Part shown: positions 11,424 through 63,061 of the stretch, one piece after another
Numbering within the stretch: the stretch's first letter is position 1
Layout: each line of letters starts with the position of its first letter
DNA from: a virus
Lineage: Duplodnaviria > Caudoviricetes
Virus record (IMG/VR): IMGVR_UViG_2918843722_000002
Location: 4,720 to 68,719 of that record
Strand: one strand, 5' to 3'
DNA: 64,000 nucleotides
Made by a program: the position numbers and the translations under genes
Notes under the pieces: model-generated
What the model saw: only the letters and a program-made list of their open reading frames with translations
Database searches by the model: none
Told to the model about the DNA's origin: nothing

Positions 11424-11612
11424 TCAAAACAGTTCCAGAATCCTTTTTGCGTTAGCTATCGCTATCTCTATCGCCTCAAAATCTGCTTCTCTTACTGCGT
11501 CTTCTTTCGCCTTATCTGCCAGCCACTCAAGTGTGTGAATCGCTGTTCGGCGGTCATTGGGAAAGTGGTGCCGTACCTCGTGGCACCACCGCAAACAAAG
11601 CGTTGCGTTCAC
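11424..11612 (-). CDS. Hypothetical early protein
   Basis: Coupled to the upstream ORF by a GTGA/ATG overlap. Confidence 0.6.
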   Translation of the reverse strand: MNATLCLRWCHEVRHHFPNDRRTAIHTLEWLADKAKEDAVREADFEAIEIAIANAKRILELF

Positions 11613-11764
11613 GCCGCTGCTTTGGCGCGCAGAGCGTCATACAGCTCGCCAGCGATCTTCAGGTAGGCACCTTCGCCGAACACCGCGTCAATCGCTTGAT
11701 CGATGGTCTTGCCTTTTGCGACTTCGGCCAGGATGCGTGCGCTGATGATTTGGTTCTTGCTCAT
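11609..11764 (-). CDS. First gene of the leftward early operon (51 aa)
   Basis: AAGGGG RBS; MSKNQIISARILAEVAKGKTIDQAIDAVFGEGAY... Confidence 0.65.
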   Translation of the reverse strand: MSKNQIISARILAEVAKGKTIDQAIDAVFGEGAYLKIAGELYDALRAKAAA

Positions 11765-11973: not shown

Positions 11974-12147
11974 TTATTTGTTCGAATAAGCAGCTATCGC
12001 TCTGCCTGCCATGAGTAGGTGGTACGAGATTGTATCGAGCAGATGGTCCGGGATCGGCTGCTGCACTGGTTTTGATTGCTTCTCGGCGGATCGAGTTCTG
12101 TACTTTGACATGTCGATGACCGCGCTACTTCCTGTTCTTTCGTTCAC
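11974..12147 (-). CDS. Small protein downstream of and overlapping cI
   Basis: GTG start inside the cI 3' end with GAGG RBS. Confidence 0.5.
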   Translation of the reverse strand: MNERTGSSAVIDMSKYRTRSAEKQSKPVQQPIPDHLLDTISYHLLMAGRAIAAYSNK

Positions 12148-12619
12148 TGTTGGCCCCCGAGGTATCGGAATGCGCGGGACCAAGATGTTGCTCTAGTTCT
12201 GCCAGCATTTGGGACCGCACGGAGCCAGTCTGCAACTCAGCGGCTGCGGAGGAAAGTAAGAGTAAACCCTGATGTAAGGCAAATGTCTTGCGGGCCAGAT
12301 CCCCAAGTCCGTCCAGGCGCTCGACACACAGAATCAAACTTTTTGCTTCATCGCTCAGAGGGGTGAAATCCTCTTTGATCGAAGATTTAACAATGTGCTC
12401 ATGATCGAGCCACCCCTCCTCTTTGCCATACGCCTGCTCTATTCGGCGAGCTATCTCATCCCCAATTCCTCGGACCGCGTTAGGTCCGATGATCGAGTTC
12501 ACCTGCTGGTTGGACATCGGTTTTTCCGACACCTCGCTGATTTTGCGAGCGAACTCAGCCGGCCCGTCGGACGCTAGCGCGCGGGCGTTTTCATATCGTA
12601 TTTGCCTGCACGTTTTCAT
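12125..12619 (-). CDS. cI: CI-like repressor (HTH, no S24 peptidase domain)
   Basis: IRYENARAL...AEFARKI...QQVNSII...IGDEIARRIE...GWLD XRE pattern; divergent from cro; probably leaderless (TTTATC-17-TAACTT ends 6 nt before ATG). Confidence 0.8.
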   Translation of the reverse strand: MKTCRQIRYENARALASDGPAEFARKISEVSEKPMSNQQVNSIIGPNAVRGIGDEIARRIEQAYGKEEGWLDHEHIVKSSIKEDFTPLSDEAKSLILCVERLDGLGDLARKTFALHQGLLLLSSAAAELQTGSVRSQMLAELEQHLGPAHSDTSGANSERKNRK

Positions 12620-24955: not shown

Positions 24956-25070
24956 TTGACGGCCGGCAGTGTTGCAGGCCGGAAGACAGATTGGATTGAT
25001 CCCCTGCTCCGCCGCCAGCCGGTAGGCCCGGCAGCTTGATACGGGCGGTGGGGCGCCAATTATCGTTTAT

Positions 25071-25183: not shown

Positions 25184-25574
25184 GAGTACCCGTCATGGGC
25201 TTGAGTCTGGGTCCGCGAAAACGTTGACTCAGCGAAATCGACCGGAAGATAGGCCGGATGCACGAACCCGTAACGTGCGACAGACAATCCGTTGCCGTGG
25301 CGGCCCATCATTGGGATAGCGCGGACAGCGCCAGCGGGCGGTGTGCTGAACATGAAAACACCCGCAGCACAGCACGCCCTGCCTCGACCGGCGAAACCGG
25401 TCCAAAAGTTCAGGGCGGGGCTGTACGCGATTCGCGCGAGACCGGTGCAGATGAGGTCGCGTGACTGGCATCCCCCAAGCGTTCCAGCGCTTTGCCGGCC
25501 ACATGCCTTGACGCTCGACGGTGCCGGCGCGCGATGATCGTTAGCCGCCTGACCGGCGCAACCGGTCCTTTCAC

Positions 25575-37270: not shown

Positions 37271-37327
37271 GCCCGCGCCTAGGATGGCGCATCCGAAAAT
37301 CCGTTCCCTGTACGGATCGGCGCGGGC
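37271..37327 (+). ncRNA. C4-like cis-acting RNA element 1
   Basis: GCCCGCGCC/GGCGCGGGC closing stem, TAGG-hairpin-CC-GAAA, ATCCGT/ACGGAT hairpin. Confidence 0.55.
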
Positions 37328-37358
37328 ACCTTAACAGGGGATCTATACAGGAAAGATC

Positions 37359-62477: not shown

Positions 62478-62860
62478 GCGCGTTCGTCAAGCCCTATGAC
62501 ACGTTGGATGCGGATCTGATAAAGGACGAGCCAGCGACGTGGCGCTTAAACGAGCCGCTCGTCTATCAGTCCGACGTCGCGAAGATCACCATCACGGTTC
62601 CGGCCGGCTTCGTCACTGACCTTGCCAGCACGCCTAGAATCCCGTTTGTCTACGAGTTTGCGGGCGGCGTTGCCAACATGGCAAGCGTCATTCATGACTA
62701 CGCGTACTCAACGCATATCGTGGACCGGAAGACGGCTGACGCGATTCTGCGTGAGGCGTCGGCTGTTACCGGTGTCTCGTGGCTAACCCGCCAAGCGATG
62801 TATATCGGCGTTCGCGCCTTCGGCTGGTCGCATTGGGGCAACGGCCCCGCTGCCGCCTGA
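62474..62860 (+). CDS. DUF1353 protein
   Basis: ITVPAGFVTDLASTPR, A.VIHDY.Y, R..AD.I.REA. Confidence 0.85.
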   Translation: MSAFVKPYDTLDADLIKDEPATWRLNEPLVYQSDVAKITITVPAGFVTDLASTPRIPFVYEFAGGVANMASVIHDYAYSTHIVDRKTADAILREASAVTGVSWLTRQAMYIGVRAFGWSHWGNGPAAA

Positions 62861-62861
62861 G

Positions 62862-62890
62862 TTGTAAACCCGCCTCATTGGCGGTATGCT
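62862..62890 (+). promoter_or_regulatory. Sigma70 promoter driving a non-coding RNA
   Basis: TTGTAA-17-TATGCT, 6 nt before the RNA 5' stem. Confidence 0.75.
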
Positions 62891-62896
62891 GTATGT

Positions 62897-63061
62897 GGAG
62901 TGAATGCGCAGGTGCTGACTGCGCTAATCAGCGGAGCGAGAGCCCTGTTTGTCAGAAATCCGCGGCAGAACCTGTGACGCCCAGGCGGAGCAGGGGTGTA
63001 AAACGAGGCGTCGGGATGAACGCCTATTGCCCGCAAGCCGGAGATCAGCACCGGCCACTCC
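62897..63061 (+). ncRNA. tRNA-like RNA with an expanded central domain, paralogue of 11312-11422
   Basis: GGAGTG/CACTCC acceptor; AAT-GCGCAG-GTGCTGA-CTGCGC arm; GCCGG-AGATCAGCA-CCGGC arm; internal CCCTG/CAGGG and AGGCGT/ACGCCT stems. Confidence 0.7.

Follow-up and report, generated by a model that had tools for sequence, protein, structure and literature searches.

At the end of a tail operon, in a stretch of viral DNA of 64,000 nucleotides (the window, by which we mean the whole stretch that was analysed), lies an element that has a partner elsewhere on the same DNA, and the question is what kind of element would occur twice with similar flanks and a different centre. A reading of the sequence alone had proposed that a conserved tRNA-like scaffold carries variable payloads here, starting from a match of 22 of 23 nt between the two places. 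We found this match at 62902-62924 (+) and 11415-11393 (-), with one mismatch; two such 23-mer matches were seen in 0 of 100 dinucleotide shuffles. They belong to two elements, copy B (62897-63061, +) and copy A (11422-11316, -), which are about 51 kb apart.

The two copies are made up of the same parts in the same order: a closing stem (P1), the linker AAU, a D-like hairpin (P2), a variable centre and a T-like hairpin (P4) that abuts the 3' strand of P1 in both. In the case of copy B, the P1 strand GGAGTG (62897-62902) pairs with CACTCC (63056-63061), which comes directly after P4 and is followed by CCCTT; the AAU linker is at 62903-62905, P2 (GCGCAG/CUGCGC, loop GUGCUGA) at 62906-62924 and P4 (GCCGG, loop AGAUCAGCA, CCGGC) at 63037-63055. 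In copy A, on the minus strand, P1 is formed by GGAATCGG (11422-11415) and CCGATTCC (11323-11316), the latter again directly after P4; P2, preceded by AAU, has the same stem as in copy B and the loop GUGGUGA (11411-11393), and P4 consists of GCCGG, the loop GUUAUUCACCU and CCGGC (11344-11324). P4 is the GCCGG/CCGGC arm that the sequence-only reading had placed just before the 3' acceptor strand. The same reading suggested that the acceptor strands differ through compensatory change, and the P1 sequences of the two copies are indeed unrelated yet complementary, and covary in homologues. Its statement that no CCA is encoded is right for copy B but not for copy A, whose 8-bp stem is directly followed by ACCA (11315-11312, -).

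The loops of the two hairpins are complementary as well, GCUGA of P2 (62914-62918) with UCAGC of P4 (63045-63049) in copy B, and GGUGA (11403-11399) with UCACC (11334-11330) in copy A. The sole mismatch between the 23-mers falls in the P2 loop (C62915 in copy B, G11402 in copy A) and is exactly compensated in the P4 loop (G63048 in copy B, C11331 in copy A), so the P2 and P4 loops pair. The central domains are unrelated to each other: that of copy A has 48 nt (11392-11345) and that of copy B, which had been put at about 110 nt in the position of the anticodon arm, measures 112 nt (62925-63036). Copy A alone folds into a cloverleaf-like minimum free energy structure (-55.4 kcal/mol, z = -3.5). 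A covariance model built from multiple homologues (R1) scored 67.3 bits for copy B (E 1e-16) and 46.9 bits for copy A (E 6e-11) in the window, scores that are no independent test as both copies are in its seed alignment, and it matched nothing else in the window.

A covarying RNA family with unrelated inserts

A scan of IMG/VR with a pattern of the 5' arm returned at least 120 stretches of DNA. These yielded at least 99 clean elements, whose centres form 84 clusters among the matches listed; the 84 insert clusters have no common 8-mers and range in length from 26 to 262 nt. Covariation was assessed in an alignment of 64 sequences (A2), including copies A and B, for the structure consisting of P1, P2, P4 and the loop-loop helix. 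Of the cells of this alignment, 98.6% pair, compared with 28-47% when the partners are slid by 1-3 columns, and changes on both sides are present in 13 of the 23 pairs (6/7 in P1, 5/5 in P4 and 2/5 in the loop-loop helix); these pairing and covariation values were reached by 0 of 500 shuffles. The loop-loop helix, with its two covarying pairs, is paired in 98.4% across the 64 sequences. The AAU linker and P2 are invariant in A2, and it should be noted that both were specified by the collecting pattern. Compensatory changes in P2 were nevertheless found in CUS-3, in a P1-like plasmid and in two loci of Burkholderiaceae, L137 and L142 (GCGCGA/UCGCGC in L142). Wobble pairs are biased in the alignment, GU/UG (25) exceeding AC/CA (8), and the sense strand is therefore the strand that folds.

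These results establish a real, structured, sense-strand RNA family in which the helices come in a tRNA-like order, the loop-loop kiss covaries and the cargo is hypervariable. P1 stacks on the 5-bp P4, P2 follows AAU, the loops pair over 5-7 bp in the position of the tRNA elbow, and in place of the anticodon arm of a tRNA every member has an insert of its own, of 26 to about 260 nt. With approximately 100 homologues, covarying stems and 84 unrelated inserts, the idea of a conserved tRNA-like scaffold with variable payloads is strongly supported. In line with a check that the sequence-only reading had suggested, a covariance model (R1) matches members in further genomes, and the outcome that it had named as speaking for another kind of element, homologues that keep the 23-mer without the flanking stems, is not what we observed, given that P1 and P4 covary.

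The family is found in phages and prophages of Gamma- and Betaproteobacteria. The fold is present in P1-like plasmids, in CUS-3 and in phages of Pseudomonas, Aeromonas, Hafnia and Burkholderiaceae, and among 120 sampled species genomes of Burkholderiaceae R1 identified clear members in 8, with 13 at E <= 0.001. The length of the closing stem varies from 5 to 14 bp. As for the inserts, one is itself a tRNA (L117:7101-7176, +; 40.3 bits; tRNA-Ser gct according to ARAGORN), and another contains a hammerhead-like core (L010:3701-3779, -; HH9 model, 28.2 bits, E 3e-5, which is below gathering).

The cargo of copy B is kept from Enterobacteria to Burkholderiaceae, with homologues in CUS-3, IME10, Huey, Hafnia phage Meifeng, Aeromonas phage 62AhydR11PP, L113 and the Burkholderiaceae locus L142, and it has a covarying stem of its own. 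This stem, P3, is formed by 62931-62939 and 63027-63034 (+); according to RNAalifold on six B-type members it has 8 pairs, 3 of which are changed on both sides. Between its strands lies a variable inner branch, and a hairpin, AGGCGU...ACGCCU (63006-63025, +), with GUAAAACG just before it, is kept in 6/6 B-type members. Copy B has two GCGGA segments and one TCCGC, which had been read as a possible switch in which the two compete for one partner. Such a switch is not supported, as the two GCGGA segments have separate partners: in P3, which is kept in five relatives through compensatory changes, CCGC (63031-63034) takes up the first GCGG, and this leaves TCCGC (62959-62963) to the second GCGGA (62983-62987).

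An exact-motif scan of IMG/VR for close relatives of copy A found none, and that for close relatives of copy B found two distant relatives of its cargo, in the contigs L148 and L149, whose frame is not recognised by R1. Both (L148:11911-12100 and L149:4800-5002) have the B-type cargo motif UAAUCAGCGGAGCGAGAG, and L148 also has the B-type motifs UAAAACGAGGCG...CGCCUAUCGCC. By eye, their frame has the part order of the family with other stem and loop sequences, and the superfamily may be wider than R1 detects.

Genomic settings

Copy B starts 37 nt past the stop codon (62858-62860) of a tail-accessory gene whose product has a DUF1353 domain (PHROG 'tail assembly chaperone'), at the end of the tail operon and convergent with minus-strand ORFs. 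A putative sigma-70-like promoter precedes it (62862-62890, +), with TTGTAA at 62862-62867, a 17-nt spacer and TATGCT at 62885-62890, and would set the start near G62897. The hexamers, the spacer and the start at the base of the stem are as the sequence-only reading had described them, but the match is weak (8/12 consensus positions) and such a promoter is not a feature of the family. A scan for sigma-70 promoters around copy B did not call it; its 8/12 is the joint-best among 82 family members, none of which reaches 9/12. Copy B could also be transcribed by read-through of the late operon; no terminator was called in a scan around it. The DUF1353 protein shares 70% amino acid identity with one of Burkholderia sp. 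8Y, and, going by this similarity, the host likely belongs to the Burkholderiaceae. At the equivalent site, the related prophage of Burkholderia sp. 8Y has no scaffold element and only a terminator, and copy B therefore looks like an added module.

Copy A is located approximately 700 nt downstream of, and on the same strand as, a repressor-like gene (12125-12619; PHROG 'transcriptional repressor'). The promoter scan around copy A made no call, and the terminator scan found none after it, the sole terminator-like site being upstream. This site belongs to two hairpins at 11560-11615 (-), located after a small ORF of the minus strand and about 140 nt ahead of copy A; one of the hairpins is terminator-like and followed by TTGTTTG. 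If these hairpins terminate transcription, copy A would need its own start or read-through.

Across the family, members occupy the late leaders of phages (from Q to the lysis genes), sites downstream of repressor genes and sites ahead of tRNA arrays. Among the homologues identified by blastn in phage records, those of CUS-3, IME10 and Huey lie in the interval from Q to holin, and that of Aeromonas phage 62AhydR11PP precedes the terminase genes. In Hafnia phage Meifeng the element is directly followed by tRNA-Arg and tRNA-Thr, and in Pseudomonas phage Marin tRNA-Gly, tRNA-Asn and tRNA-Thr lie about 110 nt downstream of it. The genes most often found next to members are Q on the upstream side and those for holin, endolysin and spanin on the downstream side. 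No neighbouring protein is conserved, the largest protein cluster being present in 11 of 82 loci, so the scaffold RNA must act alone or with host factors. A tRNA gene on the same strand lies within 500 nt of 11 of the 84 non-redundant members, downstream in 10 of these 11, against a background density in the loci of about 0.03 tRNA per kb. In 25 of the 84 members (30%), CCA occurs 0-2 nt past the stem, whereas random positions give 5.5% (p = 2e-12). How far CCA lies from the T-like hairpin varies across the family. A terminator-like hairpin is present within 130 nt in 18% of the 84 members (control, 5.6%), mostly 10-14 nt downstream. Sigma-70-like promoters that set the start at the base of the stem (at least 8/12) were found in 6% of the members versus 0.5% in the control, and because only 6% have such a promoter, most members are parts of longer transcripts.

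Some loci deserve separate mention. In the record of Pseudomonas phage Marin (L005, OR683406.1), the annotated tRNAs are displaced by about 345 nt from those that ARAGORN finds (1292-1528 versus 1637-1879), and the annotated 'tRNA-Thr' consequently overlies the scaffold RNA; this phage has a second scaffold copy on the opposite strand. In the P1-like plasmid NZ_CP010173.1 of E. coli (L129), tRNA-Asn and tRNA-Thr are lined up with two scaffold RNAs, which differ in cargo, and one STnc100-like element (811-941, 1240-1337 and 1501-1616 of this locus). All of these are unannotated and lie upstream of a TerB-family gene. In L138 and L142 of Burkholderiaceae, a start that resembles a class II tRNA (GCGGGCTTGGCCGAG...) follows about 10 nt after the element, and it seems, from these sequences, that the link between element and following tRNA holds in Betaproteobacteria too.

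Catalogued and published relatives

Rfam 15 had no match to copies A and B, either at the gathering score or at E <= 10, and none to the elements in 20 other loci, save the tRNA inside one cargo. Several known classes were considered and rejected for the two copies. They are not recognised as tRNAs (ARAGORN finds no tRNA gene in the window and RF00005 has no match at E <= 10), nor as a tmRNA (none is reported by ARAGORN in the window), nor as STnc100 (RF02076, gathering 47 bits, has no match in the provirus, nor on the elements at E <= 10). Nor do they appear to be Hfq-dependent base-pairing sRNAs: no terminator-like site follows either copy, and no significant complementarity was found within the window. 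The search for antisense targets that the sequence-only reading had suggested, in which both cargos were compared with the 64-kb window, gave no significant target, only matches of 12-13 nt at about chance level. One of these is a 13-nt perfect complementarity between 62984-62996 in the cargo of copy B and 25001-25013 (+) in the leader of the late operon; chance alone would give about 0.3 matches of this kind, and in copy B the segment is within a predicted stem.

One member of the family has already been studied as an RNA. sRNA-17 of E. coli K1 RS218, which Sun et al. (2020, Front Microbiol 11:574833, PMC7719688) described as a virulence-linked sRNA regulated by ArcA, has 193 nt, was detected by Northern blotting and RACE, and is present as a discrete RNA in the lysogen; those authors state that Rfam contains no homologue of it. 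The published primer sequences identify it as a family member: the 'full length' primer reads CGTTGTGGTGAATGCGCAGGCTGATGCGCGAAA, this and the knock-out primers include the 5' arm of the scaffold together with the first part of the L016-type cargo, and the forward primer corresponds to the terminator after the L016-type element. The RNA extends from the base of the closing stem to this terminator, and its 5' end keeps the 9-bp stem. That paper did not recognise its tRNA-like fold, the pairing between its loops or the larger family to which it belongs. sRNA-17 lies behind a repressor gene, as does copy A and unlike copy B; it differs from both in having an unrelated cargo and a downstream terminator. 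Deletion of sRNA-17 raised the expression of yfdP and yfdR, which are immediately downstream (PMC7719688), and its phenotypes could be polar effects. The L016-type cargo was found in 1587 of the 5426 complete genomes of E. coli, where it coincides with no annotated feature; in one of these genomes, the element has an XRE repressor gene upstream and yfdP downstream.

STnc100 (RF02076) and PasD, Hfq-associated prophage sRNAs (bioRxiv 10.64898/2026.05.13.724894), are similar in layout. In a 132-bit copy of STnc100, the closing stem is followed by AAU and a hairpin, the centre is variable, and a GC hairpin directly precedes the 3' strand of the stem; STnc100 also shares the niche between Q and the lysis genes. 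However, R1 does not match a bona fide copy of STnc100, nor RF02076 the two copies in the window; in addition, the T-like loop of STnc100 has 5 nt (AGGCA), and no loop-loop complementarity was seen there. The element L129:1501-1616 and another in L130 are weakly matched by both RF02076 and R1. We read STnc100 and PasD as structural cousins that are separate from the scaffold family.

More distant likenesses concern tRNA and RNAs of similar design. Like tRNA and the tRNA-like stable RNAs of phages (T4 rnaC and rnaD, species 1 and 2), the scaffold RNAs have an acceptor-like stem, a D-like arm of 4-6 bp after a short linker, a T-like 5-bp arm directly before the 3' strand, an elbow of D and T loops, CCA in some members and a position adjoining phage tRNA genes. 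They differ in that they have no anticodon arm, no UUCRANY T-loop and a variable stem length, and their elbow is a Watson-Crick kiss of 5-7 bp. R1 had no match to rnaC or rnaD of T4, even with filters off, and none to phage P22. In the tRNA-like domain of tmRNA and in engineered 'tRNA scaffold' RNAs, a tRNA-like top half closes a large insert, the same idea having been used in the latter to stabilise recombinant RNA. Copies A and B lack the tag reading frame of tmRNA and a canonical T-arm, and ARAGORN calls neither of them a tmRNA; the likeness would be one of design only. We found no paper on the fold or on the family; the 10,006 unnamed candidates of Fremin 2023 (PMC10690425) are outside this comparison. 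sRNA-17, STnc100 and PasD have been published as ordinary prophage sRNAs.

What the frame may do for its insert

Based on our current knowledge, we favour the view, to which we assign a probability of about 0.5, that copies A and B are paralogous genes of a widespread, uncatalogued family of noncoding RNAs of phages and prophages in which a tRNA-like frame serves as a chassis for RNA cargo. The mechanism that we infer is that the frame stabilises, delimits and presents the cargo. The frame would give the insert a compact, nuclease-resistant fold, and also defined ends, either as a separate small transcript or by excision from long phage transcripts beside tRNAs, possibly by tRNA-processing enzymes. 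The presented insert would then be the part that acts on RNA or protein partners, and the two copies in the window would be distinct effectors that share a chassis. Strict measuring by RNase P, as for tRNA, is unlikely because P1 varies from 5 to 14 bp, the distance to CCA is variable and sRNA-17 keeps its 9-bp stem. The near-invariant sequences of the hairpins, which in the case of the D-like but not of the T-like hairpin are partly due to ascertainment, suggest a specific partner, for which a mere chassis would have no need. Counting against the chassis are the absence of a terminator and the weak promoter of copy B, and the lack of a significant antisense target in the window.

An alternative that we consider rather unlikely is that the elements act in cis as punctuation or insulators, the frame being a processing or protection point in long phage transcripts (the late leader, the early-left leader, the head of a tRNA array) that sets the ends of mRNAs and tRNAs or blocks 5'-end-dependent decay, and the insert a tolerated filler. 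Consistent with it, most members have no promoter at the base of the stem, members lie inside operon leaders (from Q to holin, before terminase, behind a repressor) and upstream of the tRNA in 10 of the 11 cases with one nearby, and it was the genes just downstream that rose upon deletion of sRNA-17. However, at the operon end occupied by copy B, convergent with minus-strand ORFs, there is nothing downstream to process; 18% of the members have their own terminator 10-14 nt downstream; and a cargo kept from Enterobacteria to Burkholderiaceae with a covarying stem does not behave like filler. The tRNA-like geometry, the enrichment of CCA, the co-location with phage tRNA genes and the fact that the sequences of both hairpins are strongly conserved from Gamma- to Betaproteobacteria would also fit a decoy, in which the acceptor/T-like stack and the elbow (with CCA in some) titrate a host factor that binds tRNA, such as an enzyme that processes or modifies tRNAs or a defence nuclease that targets them. 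This seems improbable to us, as the T-like loop of 9-11 nt does not have the UUCRANY consensus, neither ARAGORN nor the Rfam tRNA model matches either copy, the acceptor length varies, and the anticodon loop, which is what known defence nucleases read, is replaced in these RNAs.

The loops might instead kiss between molecules, forming RNA dimers or rings as in the phi29 pRNA, with the loop codes of copies A and B keeping the two species apart. The two codes are orthogonal (GGUGA:UCACC in copy A, GCUGA:UCAGC in copy B) and the phage contig L083 likewise carries one copy per code; but L007 and the P1-like plasmid each carry two copies of the same code, the geometry fits an intramolecular elbow and there is no packaging context, so that we give this possibility very little credence. 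Equally little can be said for an element that works as DNA, be it a site of recombination or a mosaic boundary or a protein-binding site, or for decayed tRNA genes. Sequence-conserved arms do flank variable DNA, and 'boundary sequences' are annotated beside the copy of CUS-3. Yet compensatory changes occur in a stem whose strands are 100-300 bp apart as well as in the loop-loop pairs, the wobble bias marks the sense strand, one member is a verified RNA, and no tRNA model matches; long-range covariation, wobble bias and the verified transcript largely exclude both readings.

The chassis view can be extended, although with more doubt than confidence, to a natural, modular 'display chassis' of the phages of Proteobacteria, whose conserved arms would allow cargos (regulatory RNA modules, ribozymes, even tRNAs) to be exchanged by recombination and matured by host tRNA processing. 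The loop codes would then prevent cross-pairing, allowing copies A and B to fold side by side in the same cell. If the chassis idea is true, the family would be a natural counterpart of the engineered tRNA scaffold and a route for the diversification of phage small RNAs. The family is very common yet absent from Rfam 15. Its recognition would account for many 'empty' intergenic regions of phages, would fix mis-annotations such as hypothetical ORFs overlying scaffold RNA and displaced tRNA calls, and would join the reports on sRNA-17, STnc100 and PasD into one structural superfamily.

Two other RNAs were matched by Rfam in the window, both above gathering: a Proteo-phage-1 RNA at 25289-25369 (+; 48.1 bits), in an ORF-poor late leader, and an int-alpA RNA at 37272-37340 (+; 52.8 bits), among structural genes.
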